A stretch of DNA of 64,000 nucleotides from a virus (taxonomy: Duplodnaviria > Heunggongvirae > Uroviricota > Caudoviricetes): positions 1 through 64,000 of IMG/VR virus record IMGVR_UViG_3300030035_000081; one strand, given 5' to 3'. Below the pieces are notes generated by a model. The model was not told the origin of the DNA and made no database searches. It saw nothing but the letters and a program-made list of their open reading frames with translations. The translations under genes were made by a program, and so were the position numbers. Positions 9,151-58,181 of the stretch are shown piece after piece. Within the stretch, counting starts at the first letter, position 1; every line of letters starts with the position of its first letter.

Positions 9151-10845
9151 GTGACAAAAAAGAACATTTTCCCTGTAGTTGCAACCATTGCTGTGGTAGG
9201 CATTGTTCTCGGAGTTTTTTCGATGACGGTGATGAGGGACTCAAACGTCAGCATTAGTACAATGACGTCCGAGCAGGCATATGCCAACTTGAGCAGCAAG
9301 ATGAAGCGCATCGGCGTGCAGGAGGTCAAGGTCAATCCTCAGCAGCTGGATGTCTCTGAATTCCTTGATGCAAAGGATGAACTGCCCGACATTGAATCCT
9401 CCTACCCATTCGTGGTCGTAGGAAACGGAGATGTGAACATCGAAATCTTTTCCTCTGGCGAGAAAGCAACAGAGTCCGGCTCAGATTCTTTCCTGACAAG
9501 CATGGCAAAAAAGTTCAATGCCCAGCACAACAAGACTTCCGGAGACAAGACTATGAGTGTCTCCCTGCGCTCCGTTCCGTCCGGTACGGCGGCTGAGTAC
9601 ATCTCGACGGGAAAGTATCAGCCCGAGTGCTATACCCCCTCAAATACGCTCTTTGGCGAGCTGGTGAAGAACGAGGGCGTAGAATTGACCGTTGAGGCTG
9701 ACCGTCTGGTCGGCAATGTGGCGGGTATTCTCGTATCAAAGAAGACAGGGGATATGCTTCGCTCTGAATACGGTGAAGCGTCTGTTTCTTCCGTTCTGAA
9801 CGCAACCATCGATGGCAAACTCATGATGGGATACTCGAACCCCTACACAAGTGCTACGGGTCTTAATTTTCTGCTTGAGGCTCTTGCGAGCAGCGGCAGC
9901 GATACGATTGTCGATACGGCTGCTGTTGAGAATTTCCAGAAATTTCAAGCGAACGTCCCTCTCGTATCCTTCACGACCCAGCAGATGGTCCAGTCGGCTG
10001 ACAAGGGTATCGTGGACGGTGTCGTGATGGAGTACCAGTCTTATCAGAATGACCCGACCTTGCAGCGCAACTACGAATTCATCCCGTTCGGTGTACGGCA
10101 CGATAATCCTCTGTATTCCATCGGGAATGTCTCTGCGGAGAAGAAGGAAGTTATTGCTGCCTTCGTTTCCTTCTGCGCTCAGAACCAGGCAGAGGCGACG
10201 AAGGACGGGTTCAATGGCCTCGATGACTATGCTTATACCGGTAAGGTATATGACGGCAACACCATCGCACAGGCTCAAAGTGTCTGGAAAGAAGAGAAGG
10301 ACTCAGGCATTCCTATTGTGGCAGAGTTCGTTGTCGATACTTCCGGCTCGATGCGCGGCGAACCCCTGAATGCCCTGAAAACCGCGATGATAAACACCAT
10401 CCAGTATATCAATGACGACAACTATATCGGCATCATTGGCTTTGATTCAGATGTCAGGGAATACCTGCCCATTAACCAGTTCTCTCTGACCCAGAAAACT
10501 CTGTATAAGGGTGCCGTGAACTCCCTCGATGCGAACGGCAGCACCGCAATGTACAACGGTCTTTGCGTTGCTATGGACCGCATCTACCAGAAATCTCAGG
10601 AACTGGGTGGGAATTGCACGCCCATCATCTTTGTGCTCACGGACGGTGACAACAATACCGGATATGGCTTCTCCGATACGAAGAACATCATTGCCGGTAT
10701 GGATATCCCCATTTACACCATCAGCTACAACTACGCAGCGGATAGTCTTTCGGAGCTCGCTTCCATCAACGAAGCGGCAGCTATCGTCGGCAACAGCGAG
10801 GATATCACCTACAAGCTCCGCAACCTGTTTAACGCAGAGATGTAA
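9151..10845 (+). CDS. von Willebrand factor type A (vWA) domain protein with an N-terminal TM segment and a solute-binding-like domain
   Basis: MIDAS motif DTSGSM ... GST ... TDGDNN in the C-terminal third. GTG start with AAGGAG RBS. Confidence 0.8.
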   Translation: MTKKNIFPVVATIAVVGIVLGVFSMTVMRDSNVSISTMTSEQAYANLSSKMKRIGVQEVKVNPQQLDVSEFLDAKDELPDIESSYPFVVVGNGDVNIEIFSSGEKATESGSDSFLTSMAKKFNAQHNKTSGDKTMSVSLRSVPSGTAAEYISTGKYQPECYTPSNTLFGELVKNEGVELTVEADRLVGNVAGILVSKKTGDMLRSEYGEASVSSVLNATIDGKLMMGYSNPYTSATGLNFLLEALASSGSDTIVDTAAVENFQKFQANVPLVSFTTQQMVQSADKGIVDGVVMEYQSYQNDPTLQRNYEFIPFGVRHDNPLYSIGNVSAEKKEVIAAFVSFCAQNQAEATKDGFNGLDDYAYTGKVYDGNTIAQAQSVWKEEKDSGIPIVAEFVVDTSGSMRGEPLNALKTAMINTIQYINDDNYIGIIGFDSDVREYLPINQFSLTQKTLYKGAVNSLDANGSTAMYNGLCVAMDRIYQKSQELGGNCTPIIFVLTDGDNNTGYGFSDTKNIIAGMDIPIYTISYNYAADSLSELASINEAAAIVGNSEDITYKLRNLFNAEM

Positions 10846-10850
10846 CTCAA

Positions 10851-10945
10851 AAGCGCGGTTTTGTCCGCGCAGCTGCTCCAAAAGACAGCCTCCACGCGGC
10901 GAGCAGCGGGCAACGGGAGACAGTCCCGGCAAATTGTCTTTGAGA
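10851..10945 (+). ncRNA. copy 1 of recurring structured RNA motif (AGCCUCCACGCGG loop closed by GCTGCTC/GAGCAGC, then GGGCAAC and a hairpin)
   Basis: Seen in sequence. Covaries with copies at 57105-57196 and 58911-58990. Confidence 0.45.
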
Positions 10946-16261: not shown

Positions 16262-16300
16262 TAAAAGTGAATGAATTACAAAAGCTACAGAGGATAAACA

Positions 16301-16900
16301 ATGAGCTATGAACCCATTATCACACCGGGCAGGAATTTCTTTCTTGTCTCGACGGAGTACAAAGAGAGCAGCTCTGCCTGGTGCCGCAAGCAAATTAGAG
16401 CGACACTGAGGACCTGTCAGGGACGAGTCATCATCATTGATGCAACGGGCGAGTACGCGGACTTGGCGCTTGAACATGACAGATTGATTCGAGAGAAAAT
16501 CCCGTCCATCATTTATCGGTATAAGCTGGTGGACGGGAAACCGTATATTGCTCATGTCATTGAAGTTGATACGGAAGCAAATGAAGCACCGCACCTGATT
16601 GTATACGATATCAGCCGGACCATAATCACCAGCTGGAAGGTCGGCGTGGAGGCAATTGATAAAATCCTACAATCCTATGCCGTGATGCAGGACAGTGAAA
16701 TCGCGTGGCTGTATGTTCCGCTGGACTTATATACCAATGTCAAGCCCGAAAGCGAATCCTGGAACATTTTGGAACGAACTATCAAGGGTAATGAAGGCAA
16801 GCTCATGACAGTACTGACGACTCGCAAATTCACCATTGGGATGGTCCAGCGCTGTTTGCATATGGCAAAAATCAAAAATAATTTGGAGGATAACAAATGA
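16301..16900 (+). CDS. hypothetical protein (199 aa)
   Basis: GAGGA RBS. ORF. Confidence 0.6.
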   Translation: MSYEPIITPGRNFFLVSTEYKESSSAWCRKQIRATLRTCQGRVIIIDATGEYADLALEHDRLIREKIPSIIYRYKLVDGKPYIAHVIEVDTEANEAPHLIVYDISRTIITSWKVGVEAIDKILQSYAVMQDSEIAWLYVPLDLYTNVKPESESWNILERTIKGNEGKLMTVLTTRKFTIGMVQRCLHMAKIKNNLEDNK

Positions 16901-17784
16901 CCAATGAACAGCTGAGAATCGCATTGACGGCGAATGCCGTTACCAAACAAACCCGAAACCATTTTGGATTCAGTGACCCGTGTGGAAAAACGCTGGAAGA
17001 ATACAACAAGTCCGCGATGCTGTGCTGCATGACAGCGGCGCAGAGAATGAACACGCCGGGTTTTGAGCGTGTTTTGGCTGCGCAGATTTTTCCCTGCTTT
17101 ACCATTGGCTGCTGGAATCAGACGAAGACGGTCTATGATTTTGACTACGAGTTTCAGAAAATTCTTATGGATACGGATGACATGGCGATTCATCAGGATA
17201 TCCTGCAGCGGCTTCCGATTCGTGATTTCTTTATCCCGGTGTATGACAGCTACGACTACAACGGTATGTTCGTGCATGTGGAATTCGAAGAGAAAGAGAA
17301 GACCACTGCTTTCGGCATCGTTCTTGTCGGCCCGGCCAAAGGCAGCCATGATGATTTCACGTTCCTGACTCTGCCTGCCTGGGCCAAAGAAAACCAGAGT
17401 TTGACGGAAGCAACTCGGAGCACGAAAGAATACCTGGAAAAGGCAGCCGGGCAGCGGCAGGTAAATGGTATCAGCGTACCGGCTGTGATGGAAGCAGTTC
17501 CTTCGGTCTTTGACGGCGGCACACCTTATGTTCGCCTGGCAATCCTGTGTGCCTACTATCTTGCCAGTAAGAACCCTGATGTCCGCTTGGAAACTTCCAA
17601 AAAGCGTGACCGCCCGGTATTCGTGTTTCAGGGAAAGGCACAGCGAATCAACGTCAAGACATATACCGTTGGTGAGAATGCGGCCAAAGAATACAAAAAG
17701 AATGGGGAAGGCAAAACTCCCCGCTGGCAGCATTACTGGTGCGGCAATGGCCGGGAACGCCGGGAATGCAAGTTTATTTACTGA
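16897..17784 (+). CDS. hypothetical protein (295 aa)
   Basis: ORF overlapping the upstream stop by 4 nt. Antisense 408-aa ORF judged spurious. Confidence 0.6.
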   Translation: MTNEQLRIALTANAVTKQTRNHFGFSDPCGKTLEEYNKSAMLCCMTAAQRMNTPGFERVLAAQIFPCFTIGCWNQTKTVYDFDYEFQKILMDTDDMAIHQDILQRLPIRDFFIPVYDSYDYNGMFVHVEFEEKEKTTAFGIVLVGPAKGSHDDFTFLTLPAWAKENQSLTEATRSTKEYLEKAAGQRQVNGISVPAVMEAVPSVFDGGTPYVRLAILCAYYLASKNPDVRLETSKKRDRPVFVFQGKAQRINVKTYTVGENAAKEYKKNGEGKTPRWQHYWCGNGRERRECKFIY

Positions 17785-17802
17785 TGGCGGTGAGGGTGAA
17801 TC

Positions 17803-18510
17803 ATGGCTCCCCATACTTATCAGGACCCGATTGGGTTCTATGAATGGTTCGATGACCTTCCTTATGCTATCCAGGATAGTATTCTGAAACACCTGCCGCA
17901 TATGGAAGGCGAGGAATGGCTCATTGTCATTATCCTTGCAGCTCTTCTTCTGATGATTCTGGTTTCAGCGTATCTGTGCTATGCAAGGCATAATGTCAGA
18001 AAGACGAGTGAACGACTCAACGCTCTGAAAGAACTGAATGCTGCAACAAAGTTTATACCGGTCGAGACGCAGTACCGATACTACCTACGCTCTGATACGA
18101 AACTGGAATACGAGGAGTTTTCACTCCCGAAATTCTTCCGCCGCGAAGTGAGAGAAAACTTTAAGCTGTTCAACACTCTTCTTGGCAATGCTCGGGCAAA
18201 CACGATATTTTATGAAACATATGCCCTCGAAATCCAGGAACTCCCGGATTGGACAGAATCGGATGACGATTGCGGGCGGCATATCCCGTTCTTCCTCTAC
18301 CACAACATCGAGAAAGAGTTGTACGATGAAACTGTCCTGGACTGCCCTGTAACGAACCCTGAGTTTGTCTGTACGAAAAGCTATCTGCCCAAAGATGCCA
18401 AAGAGCCGATTGAGACGGAAGAGACCTATACACTGGAGGAACTGGAAGAGTACATACGCCGCTTGAAGGTTGCAGCCGAGGTTAAGAAAAGCGGCCAGAG
18501 TGCAAGCTGA
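17803..18510 (+). CDS. membrane-anchored hypothetical protein (235 aa)
   Basis: One hydrophobic helix (LIVIILAALLLMILVSAYL). Confidence 0.6.
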   Translation: MAPHTYQDPIGFYEWFDDLPYAIQDSILKHLPHMEGEEWLIVIILAALLLMILVSAYLCYARHNVRKTSERLNALKELNAATKFIPVETQYRYYLRSDTKLEYEEFSLPKFFRREVRENFKLFNTLLGNARANTIFYETYALEIQELPDWTESDDDCGRHIPFFLYHNIEKELYDETVLDCPVTNPEFVCTKSYLPKDAKEPIETEETYTLEELEEYIRRLKVAAEVKKSGQSAS

Positions 18511-18649
18511 AAAAAGTCAGCAGCCATAAGCAAGAGGCAGGGCCCTGTGTTTCATGGTTCCAGAACGTCTTCCCACCTTAATTTTACCAGCACTTTGATA
18601 TTTTGTGGTTATTGACAAACGGCGCAAAAGGTGCTTGGGTTAAAAGCCC

Positions 18650-18676
18650 TTGCAAAAAGTGCGATATCCATATAAT
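18650..18676 (+). promoter_or_regulatory. island promoter family member 6 (variant): -35 TTGCAA, spacer AAAGTGCGATATCCA, -10 TATAAT
   Basis: Seen in sequence. A canonical TTGACA lies 35 nt upstream. Confidence 0.5.
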
Positions 18677-18706
18677 AAATTGAAATTCAAAAGGGAGATA
18701 CACATT

Positions 18707-19315
18707 ATGAGTGAACAGAAAGAAAATGCTCAGCTCGAAGCTTATCGGAAGCTCGTTGAAGATTTCAAGCGCTTTGTCAGCTCTGAGATTCGAACGGAGG
18801 AAAACAGTTACCGAATTGTGGACATGACTTCCGAAGATGCCGAAATCGATGACCCGAGCGTTCCGGTGACTCAACTGGAGGACGAAAAAGCAGAGAAGCT
18901 TGCCGGTATTTGCATGGACCTGTCCAATGCCACGCTGTGGCTCTACTACAACCGTGACAAATTTGCAAACGTCGAGTTCATGCCCCTGACTGATGAAACT
19001 CTGAAAGAATACCAGAAGCAGGCTCAGAATGCTCTGAATGAACCGAAGAGCCCTCTGTATCTGAAATCCTGGTATCAGCTCATTGAAATGTTGAGTCAGG
19101 AATGTATCCCGCAGCGCTACGAGGACGACGGTCAGCGATATACAGACGTCTATGTGAACACCTATATGCTCATGTACCTGACCATGACCCGACTCAAGAA
19201 CGGCGGAACCTTTACACGCCTTGCAAACGGGCAGGGAAGCGATGCTGTGAAAATCACGACCATCGCAATGTACTACTTCTCCAGCCTTTTGACGGTTCTC
19301 TGCACTGAATATTAA
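18707..19315 (+). CDS. hypothetical protein (202 aa)
   Basis: GGGAGA RBS. ORF. Confidence 0.6.
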   Translation: MSEQKENAQLEAYRKLVEDFKRFVSSEIRTEENSYRIVDMTSEDAEIDDPSVPVTQLEDEKAEKLAGICMDLSNATLWLYYNRDKFANVEFMPLTDETLKEYQKQAQNALNEPKSPLYLKSWYQLIEMLSQECIPQRYEDDGQRYTDVYVNTYMLMYLTMTRLKNGGTFTRLANGQGSDAVKITTIAMYYFSSLLTVLCTEY

Positions 19316-19373
19316 GAAATTTTTTCCCGTGTGAGCAGCGACGCTCATGCGGGAATTTTTTTGTGATTTTCTA

Positions 19374-19401
19374 TTGTCAATCTGTGCGAATTACGTACAA
19401 T
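19374..19401 (+). promoter_or_regulatory. island promoter family member 7: -35 TTGTCA, spacer ATCTGTGCGAATTACG, -10 TACAAT
   Basis: Seen in sequence. Confidence 0.6.
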
Positions 19402-19489
19402 GAAAAATATAAACCAAAAATATATCTTATCGTTGTCCCGCATGAGTTGTTTGTGCGGGACTTTTTTGTTTGCGGAAAGGAAATGCACT

Positions 19490-19687
19490 ATGTACGGTTT
19501 ATCAGAAGAAAGCTTAACGATTGTTGGTGTTATTTTGATTGTGGTTGGTGTCGCTATGATTGGTTGGGGATTTGAATGGAATCAGGACATTACCAATGAT
19601 AAACGGGTCGGAACCGTTGTCAGAGACATTGGCGTTATGGTTTTGGCAACCGGCATTATATTTGTGATGCAGCGGGCAATGAACTAA
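19490..19687 (+). CDS. small membrane protein (65 aa, two TM helices)
   Basis: AAAGGAAA RBS. Hydrophobic. Confidence 0.5.
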   Translation: MYGLSEESLTIVGVILIVVGVAMIGWGFEWNQDITNDKRVGTVVRDIGVMVLATGIIFVMQRAMN

Positions 19688-19742
19688 ATTGAGAAAAAGT
19701 AAGGCAGGCTCATTTCGGGCCTGCTTGTTTTTTGGGTGAAAT

Positions 19743-21938
19743 ATGATTACAACAAAGAAGATTGACCCACGGCCATATCAGCAGAAAGCTGCTGCGGCGA
19801 TTCATAGAGAGTGGGATGCCGGGAATAAGAAAACGCTGGTTGTGATGCCGACCGGAACCGGCAAAACTATTGTGTTTGCAAGCATCGTGAACGACCAGGT
19901 GGAAAAGGGCGAACACGTTTTGATTCTTGCGCACCGGGAAGAGCTTTTACAGCAGGCAAGCGACAAGCTCAAGATGGTGACGGGGCTAGAGACCGCATTG
20001 GAGAAAGCTCAGAACTCGGCACTTGATTCCGATAAAATGGTCGTTGTCGCCAGTGTTCAGACTCTCTCTAAGCAGAATCGGTTAATGAAGTATCCGCGTG
20101 ATTATTTCGGGGCTATCATCATTGATGAAGCGCATCACACGGCAGCCAAAACTTACAAGGGAATTCTCGAGCATTTCATTGATGCCAAAGTGTTGGGCGT
20201 GACTGCAACACCCGACCGAAGCGACATGAAATCCCTATCTGATATCTTTGATAGTCTTGCATTTGAATATAAGCTCCCGGATGCAATTCGGGAAGGATAT
20301 CTCTGCAAAATTAACACGAAGACAATTCCGGTCGAGGTAGACATCAGCAAGGTTCATATCAATGCCGGTGATTTCAGTGCTCAGGACCTCGGCAATGTTC
20401 TTGACCTGTATCTGGACACGATTGCGGATGCCATTGTGCGAGAATGCCAGAACCGAAAGACTGTCATCTTTACGCCTCTGGTACGAATCAGCAAAAGACT
20501 GTGCAATATCCTCAATAAGCGAAACTTCAAGACCGCAGAAGTCAATGGCGCGTCTGCGGACCGGGAGGACGTTCTGAAAGGGTTTGACAATGGCGAGTAC
20601 AAGGCGCTGACGAACGCGATGCTCCTGACGGAAGGCTGGGATTGCCCGACCGTTGACTGTATCATCTGCTTGCGTCCTACCAAGAGCCGTAGCCTGTATG
20701 CGCAGATTGTGGGACGCGGAACACGCCTATGTGAAGGGAAAAAGAATCTTCTCGTGCTGGATTTCCTGTGGCTGACAAAGAAACATAGTCTTTGCCATCC
20801 TGCTGATATTTTCTGTGAAGACCCGGAAGTGGCACAAAAGACCACCGATATGCTGGCGGATGCGGCACTCACCGGTTCGAATAGCCAGGAAAATTTCGGG
20901 AGTCCCGAATTGGGGCTGATTGAGGCAATCGAGGAAGCACAGACTGAGCTGGACGAGGAAAAGCGGAAAGCACTGTGTGAACTCGAAAAGCAGGATACGA
21001 TTCAGCGCAAGCTCAAGGCACAGCGTCAAAAGCCGAGAGGATTGGTTGACCCGCTGCAGTACATTTTCAGCATCGAAGCGCCGGAACTCAACGATTATCA
21101 GCCGATGTTTGAGAGTGAGAGGCAGGAGCCTTCCGATGACATCATCGATAGTATTTCGTGCTACGGCGTAAAAGGGGATGCCATCAAATCTCAGGGCCTT
21201 GCCGCTGCAATTCTCAAACGACTCATTGCTCGCAGAGCCAGCGGAATGGCTACCCCGAAACAAATTCGGTGTCTTGAAAGTTTTGGGTTCGTCCATGTTG
21301 GGCGCTGGACATTGCGGTATGCAAGCGGCTTTTTGGACATCATCAGTTCTCATGACTGGAAACTTCCGAATGGGTTCGACGCATCCACGCTGGACCCGGA
21401 AAAGAATACGGCAGAAGACCTCGCCAAGCTGTATCCAGACTACAAGGAAGATGAGACGAAGAAAGCACCGCGTGGGGATGCTTTCATCTGCTGCTACTAC
21501 GATGCAAGCTACAATTTGGCTCGCAAGAAGGTCTGCAACAGTGAAAAAGAAATGTTGAATCTGTATTATTCACTGTTCAATACTTGCGAAGCAAAGTACT
21601 TCTATTATACGAAGGAAGCTGATGCCTGGATGGCAGAAAAGCAGAATCTAATTGCCAGAAAGACTGGAACACCGATTCCTGCCGCACAGCCGACTCAGGC
21701 AACACCCGCAGTACCTCCTCCCTTTGTCCCGACAGCTCCCGCTAAGAGCCACGAATATTATTGCTGCCTTGCCCGATGGGATGGGTCCTACATTGGCTAT
21801 GAAACTTACAAGAGTGAGCAGGCAGCTCAGAATGCCCGAAAGCAGATTGCCCGGCGCGGTGAGACGGCAGTGTATGCCACAGTAGAGGAAGCCGAAGCGT
21901 GGGTCGAACAACAGAAGGCGGCAAGAACCAGGAGGTAA
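19743..21938 (+). CDS. SF2 DEAD/DEAH-box helicase (restriction res-subunit-like ATPase)
   Basis: Motif I VMPTGTGKT, motif II IIIDEAHH, helicase C domain. 731 aa. Confidence 0.85.
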   Translation: MITTKKIDPRPYQQKAAAAIHREWDAGNKKTLVVMPTGTGKTIVFASIVNDQVEKGEHVLILAHREELLQQASDKLKMVTGLETALEKAQNSALDSDKMVVVASVQTLSKQNRLMKYPRDYFGAIIIDEAHHTAAKTYKGILEHFIDAKVLGVTATPDRSDMKSLSDIFDSLAFEYKLPDAIREGYLCKINTKTIPVEVDISKVHINAGDFSAQDLGNVLDLYLDTIADAIVRECQNRKTVIFTPLVRISKRLCNILNKRNFKTAEVNGASADREDVLKGFDNGEYKALTNAMLLTEGWDCPTVDCIICLRPTKSRSLYAQIVGRGTRLCEGKKNLLVLDFLWLTKKHSLCHPADIFCEDPEVAQKTTDMLADAALTGSNSQENFGSPELGLIEAIEEAQTELDEEKRKALCELEKQDTIQRKLKAQRQKPRGLVDPLQYIFSIEAPELNDYQPMFESERQEPSDDIIDSISCYGVKGDAIKSQGLAAAILKRLIARRASGMATPKQIRCLESFGFVHVGRWTLRYASGFLDIISSHDWKLPNGFDASTLDPEKNTAEDLAKLYPDYKEDETKKAPRGDAFICCYYDASYNLARKKVCNSEKEMLNLYYSLFNTCEAKYFYYTKEADAWMAEKQNLIARKTGTPIPAAQPTQATPAVPPPFVPTAPAKSHEYYCCLARWDGSYIGYETYKSEQAAQNARKQIARRGETAVYATVEEAEAWVEQQKAARTRR

Positions 21939-26176: not shown

Positions 26177-28045
26177 ATGGCGGCGAAAATAAATAGAACA
26201 GGCAAAACATACGGAGATTTAACAGTTTTCGAAACTATCCCCGGCTCTAATTCAAAAGCAGATACCTATTTGGTGAAATGTAACTGCTGCGGAAACACAA
26301 TGATAATTGGTATCGACGCGCTCTTGAAAGGGTTAAAGTGTAAAGACTGCCGAGGTAAAGACCGTAAACGTACATACCAGGATTTGGTTGGCGAAGAACA
26401 CAACGGTATCAAAGTTATTTCTTTGGCAGAAGATGCGATTGGAAGCACGGGGCATAGAAACATTCGTTATAACTGTATGTGTAGCTGCGGAAAAGAGTTT
26501 GTTGCTTATCGCTCTTCTTTGCTGCGGGGAAAAGTGAAGTCTTGCGGTTGTTGCAAACACATTACCGAAGCTTCGAAAATGCTTGTAGATAATGCAGAAG
26601 CTATGCAAGACTATGACTTTGCAAAAAATAAGGACGTAGATGTCAGTATGCTGACACAAGGAAGCAATATTGTTGTATGGTGGAAATGCTCTGCTTGTGG
26701 CACGGAATGGCAGGCAAGCGTATATCATTACATCCAGCGTATCAAGAGTTGCCCGATATGCAGCACTATCGATAAAGGACAGACCTCGTTCCAAGAACAA
26801 GCAGTAGCGTATTATGCAAAAAAGTATTTTTCAGAGGCTGTTATTGGAAACAAGAAAGTTATTGGAAAAGAGCTGGACATTTACATCCCCTCCATTCGCA
26901 CTGCAGTAGAATACGATGGTGTTCGATACCATTCTGATGAGAAAAGAGTGAAAAATGACGAAGAAAAGTCCGAAAAATGCAAGCAGAATGGAATTCGGAT
27001 AATTCGTATTCGCGAGCATGGGCTTCAGGAAATTCGTAATAGCGAGAATATCATCAGAGAAAACAATAGAGGGCACGCAACGCTCGACGCAGCAATTCGC
27101 CAATGCTTAGAGATGCTTGGCGTTTCTGAACCTAACATTGATACACAAAAGGATTCAAAAGACATCTATCGTCAATACAAAGATTACAAAGCTGAACGAA
27201 GTATGGGCGGACGGCATCCGGAACTCCTGAAAGAATGGGACTACGAACTGAATGTAGGCATTGACCCGATGATGGTGTCATCATCTAGCTCAGAAATGGT
27301 TCATTGGATTTGCTCTAAGTGCGGGCATAAATGGGAAGCACCCATCAATGGCAGAGCAAAAGAAAACGCAACATGTCCTGTTTGTACAACAGGCAAAAGA
27401 AGACGGAACGAAAAGAACAACCTTGCTACAGAACATCCTGAAATTGTTGCTGAATGGGATTACGAAAAAAACAAGAATTTGAAGCCCGAATATTTCTCAT
27501 CCGGGTCTGCAGAAAAATGCTGGTGGAAATGCAAAAACGGTCATTCCTACAAGATGATAATAGCCGATAGAGTATACGGGCATAACTGCCCTGAATGCTA
27601 TAAACAAAAACACTTCAAGAGTGTGATTTGCGTTGAAACAAAAGAGAGATTTTCTACAGCAAAAGAGGCTTCTCTTAAATACGGGATTAGCGGCGGTTCG
27701 CCTATCTTGAACTGCTGCAACAAGCTACGTACAGTTGCCGGAGGATATCATTGGTTATTTGCCAATGAATACGAAAGCATGACAGAAGAGGAAGCAGATG
27801 CCTTTTTGAAAGCAAATCCATCACGCGATAAGTTCGTCAAAAAAGGAAGAACTTACGATTTAGCTAATATGCACTTTGGTAAGCTAAAGGTCATTGAGAG
27901 AGCAGGAAGCCAAAACGGTCATGCTCGATGGAAATGTCAATGTGATTGCGGAAACGAATGCTTTGCGATAACCCAAAGTCTTGTAGAAAACAAGAAAACA
28001 TCATGCGGTCATTGTAATACGGAAAATACATCCAGTGCTGAGTAA
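26177..28045 (+). CDS. multi zinc-ribbon (DUF4379-like repeats) protein with a Vsr/DUF559-like PD-(D/E)xK endonuclease domain
   Basis: Repeated HPE...W.C.KCGH.W units. Central ELDIYIPSIRTAVEYDGVRYHS resembles the Vsr-like fold. 622 aa. Confidence 0.65.
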   Translation: MAAKINRTGKTYGDLTVFETIPGSNSKADTYLVKCNCCGNTMIIGIDALLKGLKCKDCRGKDRKRTYQDLVGEEHNGIKVISLAEDAIGSTGHRNIRYNCMCSCGKEFVAYRSSLLRGKVKSCGCCKHITEASKMLVDNAEAMQDYDFAKNKDVDVSMLTQGSNIVVWWKCSACGTEWQASVYHYIQRIKSCPICSTIDKGQTSFQEQAVAYYAKKYFSEAVIGNKKVIGKELDIYIPSIRTAVEYDGVRYHSDEKRVKNDEEKSEKCKQNGIRIIRIREHGLQEIRNSENIIRENNRGHATLDAAIRQCLEMLGVSEPNIDTQKDSKDIYRQYKDYKAERSMGGRHPELLKEWDYELNVGIDPMMVSSSSSEMVHWICSKCGHKWEAPINGRAKENATCPVCTTGKRRRNEKNNLATEHPEIVAEWDYEKNKNLKPEYFSSGSAEKCWWKCKNGHSYKMIIADRVYGHNCPECYKQKHFKSVICVETKERFSTAKEASLKYGISGGSPILNCCNKLRTVAGGYHWLFANEYESMTEEEADAFLKANPSRDKFVKKGRTYDLANMHFGKLKVIERAGSQNGHARWKCQCDCGNECFAITQSLVENKKTSCGHCNTENTSSAE

Positions 28046-28079
28046 TTCGGTGCTGGATTTTTTATTGGGAGATATAGAC

Positions 28080-29144
28080 ATGGCAAAGAACGATAACCTT
28101 CATAAGGCGAAGGACGCGAAGAATGATGAGTTCTACACCAGAATCGAGGATGTCGCAGAGGAATTGCGGCACTACAAGAAGCATTTCGCAGGCAAGGTTG
28201 TATTCTGCAACTGTGACGACCCGACATGGTCCGCTTTCTGGCGGTATTTTCACCTGAACTTTGCAGAACTTGGCTTAAAGAAGCTGATTTCTACGCACTA
28301 TGACCACACCGAACCAACCTACAAGATGGAGTACGAGGGCGGGGATGATAATGATGTGGAAGTCGGTGTAAAAACCCTGCTGGAAGGCAACGGCGATTTC
28401 CGGAGCAAGGAATGCCTTGACTTGCTGGATGAAAGTGATATCGTGGTGACCAATCCGCCATTCAGCTTATTCCGTGAGTATGTTGGCACACTGATGCAGC
28501 ACGGCAAAAAGTTCCTGATTATCGGGAATAAGAACGCCATTACATACAAAGAGTTTTTTCCACTTCTGAAAGAAAACAAAGTGTGGATTGGTTATAGCTC
28601 ACCATCCGAGTTTGATACCCCCAATGGAATAACAAAGAAAATCAACGGTCTAACAAGATGGTTTACTAACCTCGACATCCAGAAGCGCCACGAGAAACTG
28701 ATTCTCTGGCAGCGGTACTATGACGATGACGGAAACCCTCTGCCGGACGTGGAAGAGCGCTACCCCCGCTATGATAACTACATGGCCATCAATGTGGATA
28801 GGGTTGCGAATATTCCGGTGGACTATGAAGGCGTTATGGGCGTGCCTATCACTTTTTTGGATAAGTATAATCCGGAGCAGTTTGAGATTGTTGGTGGTTC
28901 CATGTTCGATGATACGCCTTGCAGAGCCGATAAAGATTATACAAGCCTTGGCTTTAAGTTCTTCAAGGCGGATGGCGTAACAATCTCCGGCTCTGGTGCA
29001 TTAAGAGATAAGATGTCACCAAAAGTTGTTAAAAGAGGAAGGAGCGACTTTTCGGTAAGCCCTGATGGCGTGCAGCTTTCCGCAGTTTATCAGAGAATTT
29101 TTATCAGAAAAAGGAGGAAGCAAGGCGATGAAGGTACAAAATGA
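28080..29144 (+). CDS. putative DNA N6-adenine methyltransferase (NPPF motif)
   Basis: DIVVTNPPFS catalytic motif IV. Standalone, no cognate endonuclease recognised. Confidence 0.55.
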   Translation: MAKNDNLHKAKDAKNDEFYTRIEDVAEELRHYKKHFAGKVVFCNCDDPTWSAFWRYFHLNFAELGLKKLISTHYDHTEPTYKMEYEGGDDNDVEVGVKTLLEGNGDFRSKECLDLLDESDIVVTNPPFSLFREYVGTLMQHGKKFLIIGNKNAITYKEFFPLLKENKVWIGYSSPSEFDTPNGITKKINGLTRWFTNLDIQKRHEKLILWQRYYDDDGNPLPDVEERYPRYDNYMAINVDRVANIPVDYEGVMGVPITFLDKYNPEQFEIVGGSMFDDTPCRADKDYTSLGFKFFKADGVTISGSGALRDKMSPKVVKRGRSDFSVSPDGVQLSAVYQRIFIRKRRKQGDEGTK

Positions 29145-30011
29145 AAATCAACATTATTTGCCAAAATACCGACTGAAAAAATTCGCTGGAAAAGACGGAA
29201 ATTTTTTTGTATATAACAAGGAAACTGGAAAAATTATACATGTAGGGGCAAATGTAAAAGGTATTGCAGCGGAAAACAATTTATATGAATATCCAGAGCT
29301 CAAAAAATGGAACGAATGCTATCGTGGGAAGATTGAAAAAGGACTCCTGAGCAATGATATTGAGAATTCTGATGCGAAAAAGTTGAACGAAATTCTTAAT
29401 GAAATTGATAAAACAACTTATTTGAATTCGGAAAATAGAATATCCGAAGAATCTGCGCATTGGCTTGGAGAGTATGCCTTGCGTATGCTGTTCAGGCTAC
29501 CATCGTATATAGACGAATAAAAAAACTGTTCGATACAGAAGAAGCATTTTGCAATTTCATGAAATTTATACAGACGGGGAACCATCCAAAGTTATCTGAT
29601 AATGAGTGGAACTACTATAAAGTAAAAATTGGATATTACAGTTCAGGAACCGTTATCTATAAAGCAAACAATAGCGCCATTTTACTTCCGGATATAGGGC
29701 TTGTGCTGGGTACAGGCTGTTTGAATAACACAGGCACAGAATATAGTTTATCAAATCATATGGTTATCACAATATTGTCGCCAAAAATTTACTGCGTTAC
29801 ATCATGCGGCAGCAACTCTTCGTTGCAAAAGGAGAATAGATTGATTCGCAATGCGAAAGAAAAGGATGTGATGCGTCTGAATGCCGCTTCTTATGCATCT
29901 GCCAAAAAGCATGTAATTTCTAAATATGAGTTGACGCAGAATATAATAAAAGCAATTATAAAAAGTGCTGACGATATTAACATTGTGGGCAGAGAAAGGA
30001 AATTGTTATGA
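29128..30011 (+). pseudogene. DUF4238-like gene apparently split by a frameshift (ORFs 29128..29520 and 29460..30011)
   Basis: N-terminal QHYLPKYRLKKFA matches the DUF4238 opening. Two overlapping frames sum to about 300 aa, the family size. Confidence 0.35.
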
Positions 30012-31144
30012 AAATCACAGAAACCAAAATCAAGGTATCCGACCTTGTAGAGAACTATTCGGATGACGGAGACAGTGGCGTATATGGGTACAACAATCGC
30101 CTCACGATTAGGCCAAGCTACCAAAGAAATTTTTGCTTCTCCGATAAACAGCGTGCAGCCGTCATTGATTCGGTAATGAACGGATTCCCGTTGAACCTCA
30201 TGTACTGGTCCAAGACCGGTCCAGATACCTACGAGGTTCTCGATGGACAACAGCGGACAATTTCCATTGCACAGTATGTCAACAAGGATTTCCCCGTCAA
30301 AATCAACGGCAACGACAAGTTCTTCCAGAACTTGACAGATGAGGAAAAACAGAAAATTCTGGACTACGAGTTGACCGTGAATATCTGTGAAGGCTCCGAA
30401 GCCGAGAAACTGGAATGGTTCAAGCGCATCAACATCGCCGGTGAGGTGTTGACTCCGCAGGAGCTGCTGAACGCTACTTATACAGGACCGTGGCTGGCCG
30501 ATGCCAAGAACTACTTCTCGAAACGCAACTGTGTTGCTGCGAAGATGGCTGACGGATACCTGAAAGGTAACCCGATTCGGCAGGAGTTGCTGGAAAAGGC
30601 ACTGGCGTGGATTGCTGACCGTGATGGTCTGGAATCCGGGCAGATGTACATGGCGATTCACCAGCATGACGAGGACGCCAATGACCTCTGGCTTTACTTC
30701 CAGTCTGTAATCAACTGGGCTAAAATGTTGTTCCCGACCAAGCGGAAGGGAATTACGGATACACAGGCATGGGGACTACTCTACAACAAGTACCATGCAA
30801 AGCAGTATAATAGCAACGCTCTGGACGCTGATATCAAGAAACTCGTGCTGGATGATGACGTGACCAAGAAGGCAGGCATTGTCCCGTTCATCCTCTCTGA
30901 CCGCACTTGGCGCGACGAAAAGCATCTGTCCCTTCGTGCATTTACTGAGTCGCAGAAACTCCGCGCCTATGAGCGGCAGGGTCACAAGTGCCCCTTGTGC
31001 GTTGCAAATGGCATCAACACCGAGTACGCCTTTGAGGATATGGAAGGCGACCACATCATTCCTTGGAGCAAGGGCGGACATACCACTGATGACAATCTGC
31101 AGATGCTGTGCAAGAAGTGTAATGCGGCGAAGTCGGATATGTAA
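30008..31144 (+). CDS. GmrSD-like type IV restriction endonuclease (DUF262 ParB-like NTPase domain plus HNH nuclease)
   Basis: DGQQR motif (EVLDGQQRTIS) at the N-terminus. C-terminal HNH (HKCPLC...GDHIIPWSKGG...NLQMLCKKCN). Confidence 0.85.
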   Translation: MKITETKIKVSDLVENYSDDGDSGVYGYNNRLTIRPSYQRNFCFSDKQRAAVIDSVMNGFPLNLMYWSKTGPDTYEVLDGQQRTISIAQYVNKDFPVKINGNDKFFQNLTDEEKQKILDYELTVNICEGSEAEKLEWFKRINIAGEVLTPQELLNATYTGPWLADAKNYFSKRNCVAAKMADGYLKGNPIRQELLEKALAWIADRDGLESGQMYMAIHQHDEDANDLWLYFQSVINWAKMLFPTKRKGITDTQAWGLLYNKYHAKQYNSNALDADIKKLVLDDDVTKKAGIVPFILSDRTWRDEKHLSLRAFTESQKLRAYERQGHKCPLCVANGINTEYAFEDMEGDHIIPWSKGGHTTDDNLQMLCKKCNAAKSDM

Positions 31145-31230
31145 TGGTGGGAGCATATCATGAAAAAATATCGCTATTTCATGTTCGGTATGTTCACCGG
31201 CACAGATGGGAATACAAATGTCGTATTTTT

Positions 31231-31635
31231 TCAAAAATCCAATTTATAATCCCCTGTAAGAATCCCATCAACCTCCATTGTTGCGTTCGGGTCTGCTCGA
31301 AACCCAGCTTTATGACAAAAGACTTCCATTTCACGAGTTAGTACAGATTGCATAACGATACGATGCACACCATAGTCTTCGCAAATTTCTTTCAACGCAT
31401 CGAGCAACAGAGACATTGTACCATGACGCTTTATAGAAAACCTAACACGTGAAATAACCAAAGCAAAATTACAAAGAAATGAAACCCTAAGTTCATTTTC
31501 ACCGTCATCAGAAGTAATCCAGACTGTGCGCATACTATTAGATACGTTGCAAATACAACCTTGCTTATCCTCGATGATATTCACAAGCCGTTGCGTTTGT
31601 TCCTTCGTAAGCTCAAGCATACCGGGCAATGCCAT
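31231..31635 (-). CDS. small GNAT-like acetyltransferase (tentative)
   Basis: 134 aa. C-terminal HRIVMQSV...KAGF resembles the GNAT fold. Confidence 0.4.
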   Translation of the reverse strand: MALPGMLELTKEQTQRLVNIIEDKQGCICNVSNSMRTVWITSDDGENELRVSFLCNFALVISRVRFSIKRHGTMSLLLDALKEICEDYGVHRIVMQSVLTREMEVFCHKAGFRADPNATMEVDGILTGDYKLDF

Positions 31636-31649
31636 AAAGATTCCTCCGA

Positions 31650-32190
31650 CAGTTATGTAGTATCATTTCATACATATATTATACATGCATTCTATACCGT
31701 TGGCCAAGCTGCTAGGTCGTTATTTTACAAAAAAATTCAAAAACAGGAGCCGTTCATACCACAGGAAAGCCTGCGGGTTTTCTAGCTCCCAATTATAACA
31801 TTGGTGCCCGGTATTTCATCCGCGAGGTAACAAAACCCATGTCAAAGAAGGCATGGTCTCAGTGTAAGGCTAAAGTTCCTGACATTGAGCGTAGAACCCA
31901 ATGCACATTGTACTCCCTTAAACAGTTGCATTCACTGTTGAGCCCCCCGTGGCGACTCAACAGCCCGGGCCCATCTGTTGGGATTACACTGTGTTGCGAG
32001 AACTTTGCGGGAGACTAACCCCTATGTGGCGACCAATGCCGTCAGGCATTGTTAGCTAAGTTCGGGTCGTATCTCTACCTTCGGGTTACGCAGAGACTTA
32101 CCGTGGGGTTACAACCCACGGAGAAGCCCCAACTATAGCCGAAAGGTTTAGGTGGGGAGGTCCACGATGAAGCATACAAAATCAGCGAGG
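31650..32190 (+). ncRNA. candidate large structured non-coding RNA (ORF-free 540 nt with many hairpins); strand unresolved
   Basis: No ORF of 60 aa or more on either strand. Hairpins such as CCGTGGGGTTACAACCCACGG, ATGCCGTCAGGCAT and GTTGAG...CTCAAC. Confidence 0.3.
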
Positions 32191-32199
32191 TAGAAGTTA

Positions 32200-32589
32200 A
32201 TGTTTAATACTAAGAAAACCGTCCGCCAGGACATTCACGAAAACGAAGCCGCTTACTCCGGAACCGTGACTACCGTCACCCACAAGACCATCGTGGTCTT
32301 CATCCCGGCGCTCGATGTCGAGGTGGATGTCCAGCGTAACCCCGATGCATCCGTTCAGAACGGTTCTGTCCCCAAAGTAGGGGATATCGCAACCGTGCAG
32401 ATTGTGCTCGAAGACGGCGACTATACCGCTACCGCTGCCACGTTCGTGCCACAGCAGGACATCAGGGAAGACATTCCCGTCACTGATGACGACTTCTTTG
32501 ATGACGATTTGGATGATGAAAAAGCAGAGGAGTATGACTGGTACAACGAGCCTCCTGCAGATGATTTTGGTAACTTAGATATTGACTGA
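32200..32589 (+). CDS. acidic hypothetical protein (129 aa)
   Basis: GAGGTAGAAG RBS. D/E-rich C-terminus. Confidence 0.55.
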   Translation: MFNTKKTVRQDIHENEAAYSGTVTTVTHKTIVVFIPALDVEVDVQRNPDASVQNGSVPKVGDIATVQIVLEDGDYTATAATFVPQQDIREDIPVTDDDFFDDDLDDEKAEEYDWYNEPPADDFGNLDID

Positions 32590-32595
32590 GTTATT

Positions 32596-32722
32596 GAAAT
32601 TTGCCTTGAGTTTTTCGCAAGGCGTGATATAATAGAACCATCACAAAAGGTTTTGAGCCTCCCATCGTAATCAGTAGTATGCTGACTGCGGTGGGAGGCT
32701 GTTTATTTTAAGGAGGATTCTG
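32596..32722 (+). promoter_or_regulatory. promoter-leader module A: extended -10 TGATATAAT followed by leader hairpin AGCCTCCCA...TGGGAGGCT plus U-tract, then RBS
   Basis: Seen in sequence. Near-duplicate at 33960..34100. Confidence 0.45.
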
Positions 32723-57210: not shown

Positions 57211-57286
57211 GCTGGTTTAGCTCAGCTGGTAGTGCAACTGATTTGTAATCAGTCGGTCATCGGTTCAAGTCCGATTTCCAGCTCCA
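57211..57286 (+). tRNA. tRNA-Thr(UGU)-like with two U-U mismatches at the base of the acceptor stem
   Basis: Manual cloverleaf. Anticodon loop TTTGTAA, T-arm ATCGG/CCGAT, encoded CCA. Confidence 0.5.
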
Positions 57287-57759
57287 GACGCTATCCGTTG
57301 GATGTATCGAAATCACATGATACGATGCTATACACAACATCTGGCGGACAGCATGCCACCCATTAAGGCGGCCTCCTCGTGGCGGGTGGCGGACAGCGGC
57401 TCTTGCGGCTGCTGACGAATGTCTTAGAAGCATGCAAACGTACGAGCATCCCCGTCAAGTCGGGGCGCATCCAGACGCGACACAGCCGTAAAGGCGAGAT
57501 TGCTGCACGGCAACTGGTAAGTTTCGCCGCAGTCTCACACACAGCCCAACAACAACCGTTAACCCGATTTGACAGGGAATCAACGACAGGGCTCAAAATT
57601 TGAAGTTGACCAACACCCAAGCGCTTTCTTGGATTCTCGCGTATCGTCAACGATGAGGTTCGCAAGATTGTCAGGTGGTGTGAAGATGACATCCGGGGAT
57701 GACGACCTACTAAACGGATGTCATGGCGGGGCTAAGTGAGGGTTCACCCGCAATCTTAT

Positions 57760-57834
57760 GCAGGTATCGTATAACGGCTAATACTCCGCCCCTCCAAGGC
57801 GGAGACGCGGGTTCGACCCCCGCTACTTGCTCCA
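57760..57834 (+). tRNA. tRNA-Gly(UCC)
   Basis: Manual cloverleaf. Anticodon loop CCTCCAA, T-loop TTCGACC, CCA encoded. Confidence 0.8.
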
Positions 57835-58105
57835 CACGTCGCAGTCACCGTACCCACGACGTTAAACTTGGTGAGCATGGTCCACTTGTGGTCCGCTGTC
57901 CGAATGTCGATGAGACAGCCTCAAAAATAATAGACAAACAGGTGCTGTGCCTGATAGTATCCAATAGTCCCGGTATTAGTCGCGAATAAGACCGGAAAAC
58001 AGCGGAAAGGGTATAAAGCAGAATCCATCGATGCAGCTATCGAATGGTGCTGGATGCGAGTTGGCTTCTCGCTCAAGGGGTGACCAGCATAAAACACCCT
58101 ATCGT

Positions 58106-58181
58106 GCTCGATTAGCTCAGTTGGTAGAGCAGCGCATTCGTAACGCGCAGGTCGGCAGTTCGAACCTGCCATCAAGCCCCA
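58106..58181 (+). tRNA. tRNA-Thr(CGU)
   Basis: Anticodon loop TTCGTAA. One mismatch each in the acceptor and anticodon stems. Confidence 0.7.

Follow-up and report, generated by a model that had tools for sequence, protein, structure and literature searches.

A hairpin-rich, gene-free stretch in a phage genome is most likely a relic of the right end of an IS200/IS605-family element with its omega RNA scaffold

The stretch of phage DNA analysed here, which comprises 64,000 nucleotides and is referred to as the window, contains at positions 31650-32190 a region rich in predicted hairpins and poor in genes, and the question is what kind of element this region represents. The initial annotation regarded it as a candidate large structured non-coding RNA without ORFs of at least 60 amino acids, located between convergent genes. 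No credible protein gene could be found in 31650-32199, but the mechanical ORF list contains a 74-aa ORF (31561-31785) that enters the region, as well as a 59-aa ORF (31839-32018), which is the out-of-context tail of a tnpB pseudogene described below. The flanking genes are divergent and not convergent: the left neighbour (31231-31635, minus strand, 134 aa) has a weak match to the GNAT family (PF13673, E=0.009), and the right neighbour (32200-32589, plus strand, 129 aa) has no family match.

On the plus strand, the whole region folds with a minimum free energy of -178.8 kcal/mol (z = -4.28), a stability that was reached by none of 100 dinucleotide shuffles, and on the minus strand z = -2.78 was obtained. 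The reported hairpin density holds insofar as the fold is stronger than that of all 100 shuffles and GC-rich hairpins with UUCG and GAAA tetraloops occur, but the structure excess is confined to 31894-32165, which alone gives z = -3.81. In the left third (31650-31792), folding does not exceed that of shuffled controls; for 31690-31800 on the minus strand, z = -0.05 was obtained and 96 of 200 shuffles fold equally well. Due to the uneven structure excess, the listed ORFs and the divergent flanking genes, the initial observation is considered real but imprecise.

The whole window was searched against Rfam at gathering thresholds and 31400-32700 additionally at E<=10. The first scan found nothing within the region, and the second resulted in only five chance-level matches (E 1.1-8.1, 13-18 bits) to snoRNA, miRNA and cow-rumen-1 models, which are far below the gathering scores and lie almost entirely outside the region. 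Elsewhere in the window, a HEARO RNA (6182-6442), an HDV-like ribozyme (10872-10941) and 17 tRNAs (57.2-63.6 kb) were detected; the suggested proximity to tRNAs applies only loosely, as this array lies about 25 kb away. ROOL, GOLLD, HEARO, group I and II introns and riboswitches were rejected, since neither threshold gave a relevant match, and an IStron was rejected because the left ends of the intact copies described below do not have the length to hold a group I intron, and no intron model matched. The length, the G + C content and the hairpin density of a segment located in a phage would fit an ornate RNA of the ROOL, GOLLD or HEARO type or a group I/II intron, and a true HEARO RNA is indeed present elsewhere in the window. 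However, none of the five chance-level matches belongs to these families, the segment does not interrupt a gene as an intron would, and tnpB 3′ ends and IS right ends are its base-for-base homologues, so that the probability of such an RNA is close to nil. In GenBank phages, no match was found by BLAST either for the region (distant mode) or for the surrounding 24 kb (near mode).

Relatives of the 129-aa gene could be identified in 22 IMG/VR phage loci. The whole region is present in seven of these (L003-L009), and in others an upstream DUF262-HNH gene or another gene runs straight into the 129-aa gene. A 21-mer from the region was also found in an unrelated context, locus L027, where window 31793-32165 aligns at 96% identity with the 3′ terminus of an ORF of 524 aa plus the next 109 nt. 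Based on homology to full-length tnpB copies and a common end at 32165, this segment of 373 nt (31793-32165, plus strand) was annotated as the right-end segment of an IS200/IS605-family element. It is 96-97% identical to the copies L027, L031, L032 and L054 and 81-83% identical to about 20 further full-length copies.

A tblastn search with the L027 TnpB revealed a tnpB pseudogene fragment on the plus strand (31794-32056), which corresponds to codons 437-524 of the 524-aa protein. In frame 3 (31794-31973) the identity is 87%, and in frame 2 (31937-32056) it is 90%, the frame being shifted by a 1-nt deletion after 31942. In the intact copies, the same DNA forms the end of a tnpB ORF of 493-524 aa. 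About half of the supposedly ORF-free region is thus a frameshifted tnpB pseudogene fragment. Neither a left end nor tnpA nor tnpB 5′ sequence of the 524-aa clade could be found in the 64-kb window, which holds only the last 373 nt of the element. The copy is consequently not an intact mobile IS200/IS605 element but has lost its left end, tnpA and 83% of tnpB. We assign a probability of roughly 85% to the reading that the hairpin-rich stretch represents an IS200/IS605-family right end truncated on its 5′ side, in all likelihood an inert fossil.

The parent 524-aa protein matches the NCBIfam model NF040570 (guided_TnpB) with E=7e-19 over residues 24-442, the score of 68 bits being below the curated cut-off of 100 bits, and the TnpB structure 9nzp_A in the PDB with E=5e-7. 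The match to the Pfam TNB domain is weak (E=5e-4). The motifs AVDLG, FEHL and NADLNA correspond to the D-E-D triad of RuvC, and the parent is a member of the RNA-guided TnpB family. The zinc-finger cysteines are absent from the segment aligned to the PDB TnpB. Relatives were found in 31 further loci. The proteins of this clade comprise 493-524 aa and have a variable C-terminal tail overlapping the RNA described below; in the 524-aa parent, the tail is about 80 aa long. In L027, tnpB adjoins an IS200-type Y1 transposase gene (2559-2963; PF01797 E=1.5e-37, NF033573 E=1e-37), which is the arrangement of an autonomous copy; most copies are tnpB-only. The relic derives from an element of the tnpA/tnpB "IS605-group" type with TTGAT as its target-adjacent motif (TAM). 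TnpB proteins with 82% and 46% identity occur in a Lachnospiraceae MAG and in Dysosmobacter segnis, respectively, which points to Clostridia as hosts and agrees with the earlier proposal of a phage-like element of Firmicutes. The window also encodes a canonical TnpB of 369 aa (4446-5555). It has no detectable similarity to the 524-aa clade, and use of the relic RNA by this protein is unlikely.

The right boundary of the element is sharp. In every one of the more than 20 copies with homologous 3′ sequence, similarity to the window ends at GGAGGTYCAC, the last base of which is window 32165, and from the first base beyond this motif the flanks are unrelated between copies. At the other end, the intact copies start with GAATAATGAAGAGCGCAC directly after TTGAT; among L031-L049 the motif preceding the left end is TTGAT, except for TTGAC in L045 and L049 and ATGAC in L046. 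Two pairs of empty and filled sites demonstrate insertion 3′ of this short TAM without target-site duplication. At the relic locus, the uninterrupted allele of a related phage consists of TTGAT followed by GATGAAGCATACAAG, i.e., the expected target motif and then the flank. In L019 and L020 this allele reads TATATTGAT before and GATGAAGCATACAAGATTAG after the insertion point, and in the window GGTCCAC at the end of the relic is followed by GATGAAGCATACAAAATCAG. The second pair concerns another site of the window, where an empty TTGAT is located at 18595-18599 (18590-18608 read GCACTTTGAT before and ATTTTGTGG after the junction). In L033, which is 95% identical to the window over 16267-20983, a tnpB-only copy of 1.86 kb is inserted exactly between 18599 and 18600.

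The uninterrupted alleles also reveal which gene was hit at the relic locus. In L015-L017 and L019-L020, TTGAT lies within the 3′ end of a gene of about 150 aa. These loci match the window up to 31214 and continue past this point as an intact gene ending at the TTGAT site, and the 5′ remnant of this ancestral gene, about 18 codons, could therefore be annotated at 31161-31214 (plus strand). Its last 14 codons are retained in the window at 32166-32207. The first part of this remnant, the approximately 20 nt past the right end (32166 to about 32185, plus strand), is at the same time the guide-equivalent flank of the relic and would supply the guide if an omega RNA were read out across the right end.

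In TnpB elements, a guide RNA (omega RNA or reRNA) is encoded from the tnpB 3′ end to the transposon's right end and takes its guide from the flank (PMC10055086, PMC13565253). An omega RNA scaffold of about 272 nt could be delimited at 31894-32165 on the plus strand, the segment to which the structure excess is confined. A long-range helix between GAACC (31894-31898) and GGUUC (32160-32164) closes the fold next to the guide and covaries, changing to GAAUCC/GGAUUC in the L043-type copies. In the intact copies, the invariance of third codon positions increases over the RNA: it is about 0.35 in the tnpB body, 0.70 at 31866-31925 and 0.85-0.90 from 31986, with a variable hairpin between the last two segments. 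The limits of the scaffold follow from this rise and the covariation of the closing helix. At its end, a subterminal hairpin with a GAAA loop (32123-32163, plus strand) is similar to the left-end hairpin found in this IS family, which in L033 and L045 matches window 32126-32157 at 84%. The same right-end hairpin also resembles the hairpin that opens the HEARO RNA of the window (6188-6230).

Conservation of the RNA structure was supported by two alignments. RNAalifold was applied to 13 distinct copies (81-97% identical) using the MAFFT alignment A2, which is independent of covariance-model fitting, and predicted a multi-helix fold with 79 pairs, five of them with compensatory changes. A covariance model (R1) of the 3′ 170 nt of the RNA detected another RNA type, dissimilar in sequence, where it was expected in the L043-type copies and in Dysosmobacter (23-31 bits; L043-type copies 23-25 bits); nhmmer with the omega RNA alignment found no sequence similarity in the L043-type copies. 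The model also matches the left ends of intact copies via their subterminal hairpin. In the combined alignment, which was fitted to the model and thus favours structure, 97.7% of the cells are paired, and compensatory changes occur in 20 of 52 pairs; with slid partners, they occur in 2-6 pairs, and none of 500 shuffles reached the observed values. The comparative covariation that had been named as a check on the structured RNA was hence found. What had been described as a large structured non-coding RNA is indeed a structured RNA in a Firmicutes phage, but its class is that of a TnpB omega RNA scaffold and it is a 5′-truncated remnant and not an intact RNA locus. The omega RNA family of the 493-524-aa TnpB clade with the TAM TTGAT is absent from Rfam. 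In the intact copies, the RNA is predicted to be bound by TnpB, with the flanking 16-20 nt or so as the guide.

The left ~140 nt of the region are unrelated to the IS and contain a putative promoter and a terminator-like hairpin of the neighbouring gene. A consensus scan revealed a sigma-70-like promoter at 31678-31707 on the minus strand (TTGGCC-18-TATAAT, 10 of 12 matches), a pattern match that putatively serves the GNAT-like gene. A terminator-like hairpin with a U-run is predicted from the fold at 31729-31791, also on the minus strand, with the stem GGGAGCUA...GGCUCC followed by UGUUUUUGAAUUUUUUU. This segment is missing from all intact IS copies and is part of a cassette that replaced the interior of the IS. 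Paralogues of the GNAT-like gene (about 70% identity) were considered as a guide to the origin of 31215-31792 and proved uninformative, since they occur in unrelated contexts.

On the right side, the structured segment lies directly upstream of the 129-aa gene in the same orientation, with GAGGT at 32187-32191 (plus strand), about 20 nt beyond the IS right end, as the ribosome-binding site of this gene. The 129-aa gene could have recruited the segment as its 5′ leader or for its regulation, for example that of mRNA stability or translation, and the insertion did cut the gene off from the upstream plus-strand transcription unit. On the other hand, L001, L002, L011 and L021 express the same gene without the segment, as unrelated upstream sequence runs straight into it. 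In addition, helix-breaking changes accumulate in the relic and no cis-regulatory model of Rfam matched. Such a regulatory function is considered very unlikely, and the reading as a truncated IS right end is preferred here as well.

Besides the frameshift in the tnpB fragment, decay is apparent at several positions of the RNA. In the relic lineage, three substitutions occurred at positions that are invariant in 12 distinct intact copies, namely 32087 A>T, 32147 C>T and 32162 T>C; the change at 32162 results in an A·C mismatch in the covarying helix adjacent to the guide. Sister relics carry private helix-breaking changes (L004 at 32084, L008 at 32009, L009 at 32064), and in L004 a 26-nt deletion (31885-31910) removes the 5′ strand of the closing helix. 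The relic folds with -104.4 kcal/mol (z = -3.8), which is 12 kcal/mol weaker than the intact copy L031 (-116.4 kcal/mol, z = -5.5).

The 64-kb window contains no cognate tnpB or tnpA, and as it covers only a portion of a genome possibly larger than 200 kb, a cognate tnpB could be located elsewhere. On the seven relic-bearing contigs (33-188 kb), no intact tnpB of the 524-aa clade was found; L033, a close relative of the window, does carry one, and both this and the incomplete genome count against an inert fossil. A search with the right-end motif matched relic-bearing contigs, and most of these matches (L082, L143, L151) are a solo hairpin of 58 nt composed of left-end and right-end sequence, located after TTGAT beside a ligase-like gene, where the same fossil occurs in about 55 contigs. 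L102 represents a separate partial right-end relic of 112 nt. Further decay products retain the left end together with the last 150 nt (L135) or with 660 nt (L060/L087). L146 is an independent right-end-only relic of 394 nt, whose truncation point is 21 nt away from that of the window relic. The retention of the whole scaffold together with this near-coincidence might be a sign that a complete RNA unit was selected for; the near-coincidence was not treated as evidence of selection because other derivatives are truncated at clearly different positions (L033 coordinates 3523, 4032 and 4123). The simplest reading is that the relic is one of many fossils of the same IS in this phage group.

The distribution of sequence identity around the relic has to be considered as well. 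Eight genomes (the seven related loci and the window) share, at a pairwise identity of 98.7-99.5%, a block of about 1.1 kb (~31130-32248) that comprises the host-gene remnant, the GNAT-like gene, the relic and the beginning (~50 nt) of the 129-aa gene. For L004, the identity is 96-97%, the lower value being explained by its 26-nt deletion. In the same genomes, the upstream HNH gene is 86-92% identical (L009 has a different upstream gene), and the 129-aa gene is 81-98% identical with the exception of L003/L005 (99.4%). On either side of the cassette, the identity of ~99% stops within ~90 bp. Judged by this block in diverged flanks, the cassette has spread recently through a diverse phage population. 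An inert fossil by itself does not account for the spread, a point that counts against the preferred reading.

The spread would be accounted for if the relic encoded a functional, transcribed orphan omega RNA that associates in trans with a TnpB of its own clade, provided from elsewhere in the phage genome, by another element, by a co-infecting phage or by the host. Uninterrupted alleles with TTGAT and the target would then be cleaved by this complex in rival phages, and repair with the relic-bearing genome as donor would copy the relic together with the GNAT-like gene. The ~99% island at ~31130-32248 in flanks of 81-92% identity ends like a co-conversion tract, and nuclease-driven homing typically leaves such blocks of near-identity, the "HEG islands" (PMC13565253). 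Moreover, a natural target allele with the TAM is present in the related phages L019/L020, intact tnpB copies circulate in the same phage group, including L033 with 95% identity to the window, and PATEs, protein-less omega RNA elements that need TnpB in trans, have been described (PMC10055086). These observations are set against the decay of the RNA, as substitutions at invariant positions break the helix adjacent to the guide and the sister relics show additional helix-breaking changes as well as the 26-nt deletion, which argues against homing driven by the relic. Furthermore, neither the window nor the seven relic-bearing contigs yielded a cognate tnpB, the consensus scan revealed no plus-strand promoter, and positions 15 and 18 of the L019 target do not match the guide of the relic. 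Ordinary recombination, or selection for the GNAT-like gene, would explain the identity island just as well, and recombination combined with such selection is sufficient to account for it. Homing by a TnpB acting in trans is therefore regarded as improbable, and it retains a small share of probability because of the HEG-island-like pattern and the known omega RNAs used in trans.

Returning to the truncated right end as the preferred reading, the following order of events is inferred. The IS would have inserted 3′ of TTGAT, inside the 3′ end of the phage gene of about 150 aa. A later deletion or replacement would then have eliminated the left end along with any tnpA, as well as 83% of tnpB and the greater part of the host gene, and this loss would have brought in, or come with, the segment 31215-31792 with the GNAT-like gene, its own promoter and its terminator. 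In intact copies, TnpB would bind the RNA, the guide would direct cleavage of empty sites with TTGAT and the target, and recombinational repair after the cleavage would re-install the transposon. Lacking the left end, TnpA and TnpB, the relic presumably neither moves nor cuts, and it may at most be transcribed passively in the leader of the 129-aa gene.

For genome annotation, this means that a conspicuous structured and gene-free stretch represents, on the preferred reading, a transposon fossil and not a new ornate RNA. An omega RNA family outside Rfam, which is common in large gut phages of Clostridia, is documented here, and the decay series of full, tnpB-only, mini and right-end-only copies down to the 58-nt hairpin can be useful for tracing IS turnover in phages. 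If, however, the relic RNA did drive the spread of the cassette, this would be a new mode of homing between phages, in which cargo without a nuclease gene is moved by an RNA-guided mechanism, and such guide-only homing would account for a ~99% cassette in flanks of 81-92%.

By every sequence-level criterion tested, from the continuity with the tnpB 3′ end to the right boundary, the TAM and the covarying RNA, the relic belongs to the IS200/IS605 TnpB/omega RNA systems. Of the described systems, ISDra2 of Deinococcus radiodurans resembles it in an RNA that comprises the tnpB 3′ end and the right end and takes its guide from the flank, and in insertion 3′ of the same TAM, TTGAT (PMC13565253). Similar subterminal hairpins at the left and the right end are likewise a feature of IS200/IS605 TnpB systems, and the pairing of the 5′ segment of the relic family with guide-adjacent sequence resembles the pseudoknot reported for prokaryotic OMEGA RNAs (PMC13565253). 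In contrast to ISDra2-type elements, the RNA belongs to a sequence family that is not in Rfam and has a longer scaffold (~272 nt), the parent TnpB of 524 aa has a C-terminal tail of ~80 aa and is without the zinc-finger cysteines of the PDB TnpB alignment, and the window copy is without tnpB, tnpA and left end.

PATEs are protein-less IS605 derivatives that may encode an omega RNA and need TnpB in trans (PMC10055086), and as a protein-less derivative with a possible omega RNA the relic is similar to them. However, PATEs have both ends and can therefore still be mobilised by TnpA, whereas the relic, with a right end only, cannot be excised. Related contigs do contain true minis of the same IS with left and right end, namely L135, L060/L087 and the 58-nt solo hairpin.

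HEARO RNA sits 5′ of iscB and has its guide at the HEARO 5′ end. This IscB omega RNA (RF02033) is also a guide-RNA scaffold of the same transposon superfamily, and the 5′ hairpin of the copy at 6182-6442 resembles the IS end hairpins, but the fold is different and the HEARO model did not match the region. Finally, the short near-identical block with diverged flanks in many related phages resembles the islands of homing endonucleases known from intronless homing, from which it differs in that the block contains no nuclease gene but only the RNA-guide relic and the GNAT-like gene.

The cassette comprising the GNAT-like gene (31231-31635, minus strand) and the IS relic (31793-32165, plus strand), about 1.1 kb in total (~31130-32248), was compared among eight genomes, namely the window and the related phage loci L003-L009. 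It shows a pairwise identity of 98.7-99.5%, except for L004, which falls below this range owing to a 26-nt deletion, whereas the flanking genes in the same eight genomes are only 81-92% identical, save in the closely related pair L003/L005. This difference points to a recent horizontal spread of the cassette.

An empty TTGAT target site is located at 18595-18600 of the window. In the 95% identical relative L033 (IMGVR_UViG_3300045988_182459), this site is filled by a 1.86-kb tnpB-only IS of the relic's family, the insertion point being precisely 18599|18600. The TnpB clade of the relic, represented by the phage locus L027 (915-2489, minus strand) and its relatives L031-L059, consists of unusually long proteins of 493-524 aa. 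Their C-terminal tail overlaps the omega RNA and is variable in length, resulting in proteins of 493, 497 and 524 aa. In the segment aligned to the zinc finger of the PDB TnpB 9nzp_A, the cysteine pairs are absent from this clade.

Further fossils of this IS family were found in related contigs. Among L076-L164, a 58-nt solo hairpin (e.g., L143 6257-6314 and L151 3037-3094) is composed of the 5′ half of the left end joined to the 3′ half of the right end. It is located after TTGAT, with a conserved gene on one side and a ligase-like gene on the other, is present at the same locus in around 55 IMG/VR contigs and is the minimal fossil of the family. A right-end-only relic independent of that in the window was identified in another contig (L146, 2583-2976) as an L045-type copy at its own locus. 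Its truncation point lies just 21 nt upstream of that in the window relic, and a host ORF located upstream extends into the L146 relic.

Upstream of the window relic, a run of restriction- and defence-like genes (26177-31144) consists of genes for a DUF4379 treble-clef protein (622 aa), an EcoRI-type adenine methyltransferase (PF13651, E=4e-109), a DUF4238 protein and a GmrSD_N + HNH protein (378 aa). An HDV-like ribozyme (RF02682, HDV-F-prausnitzii, 60 bits; 10872-10941, plus strand) is located directly 3′ of a 564-aa ORF (9151-10845). The 17 tRNA genes, all on the plus strand in loose clusters (57211-63561), and related contigs of up to 389 kb suggest a large, jumbo-type phage genome.

The window also encodes a canonical TnpB (369 aa) that is intact (4446-5555, minus strand; NF038281 IS200_TnpB, E=5e-151) and belongs to a different clade than the relic's parent TnpB; the omega RNA of this 369-aa TnpB would be expected on the same strand, immediately below position 4446. 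At 6182-6442 (plus strand), a full-length match to HEARO, the IscB omega RNA, was detected (91 bits). No IscB gene lies 3′ of it, the first downstream gene being a flotillin-like ORF instead (6500-8143, plus strand; NF058507, E=8e-80). Besides the relic, this HEARO appears to be another guide-RNA scaffold within the window that is orphaned, and its 5′ hairpin (6188-6230) is similar to the end hairpins of the relic's TnpB IS family.
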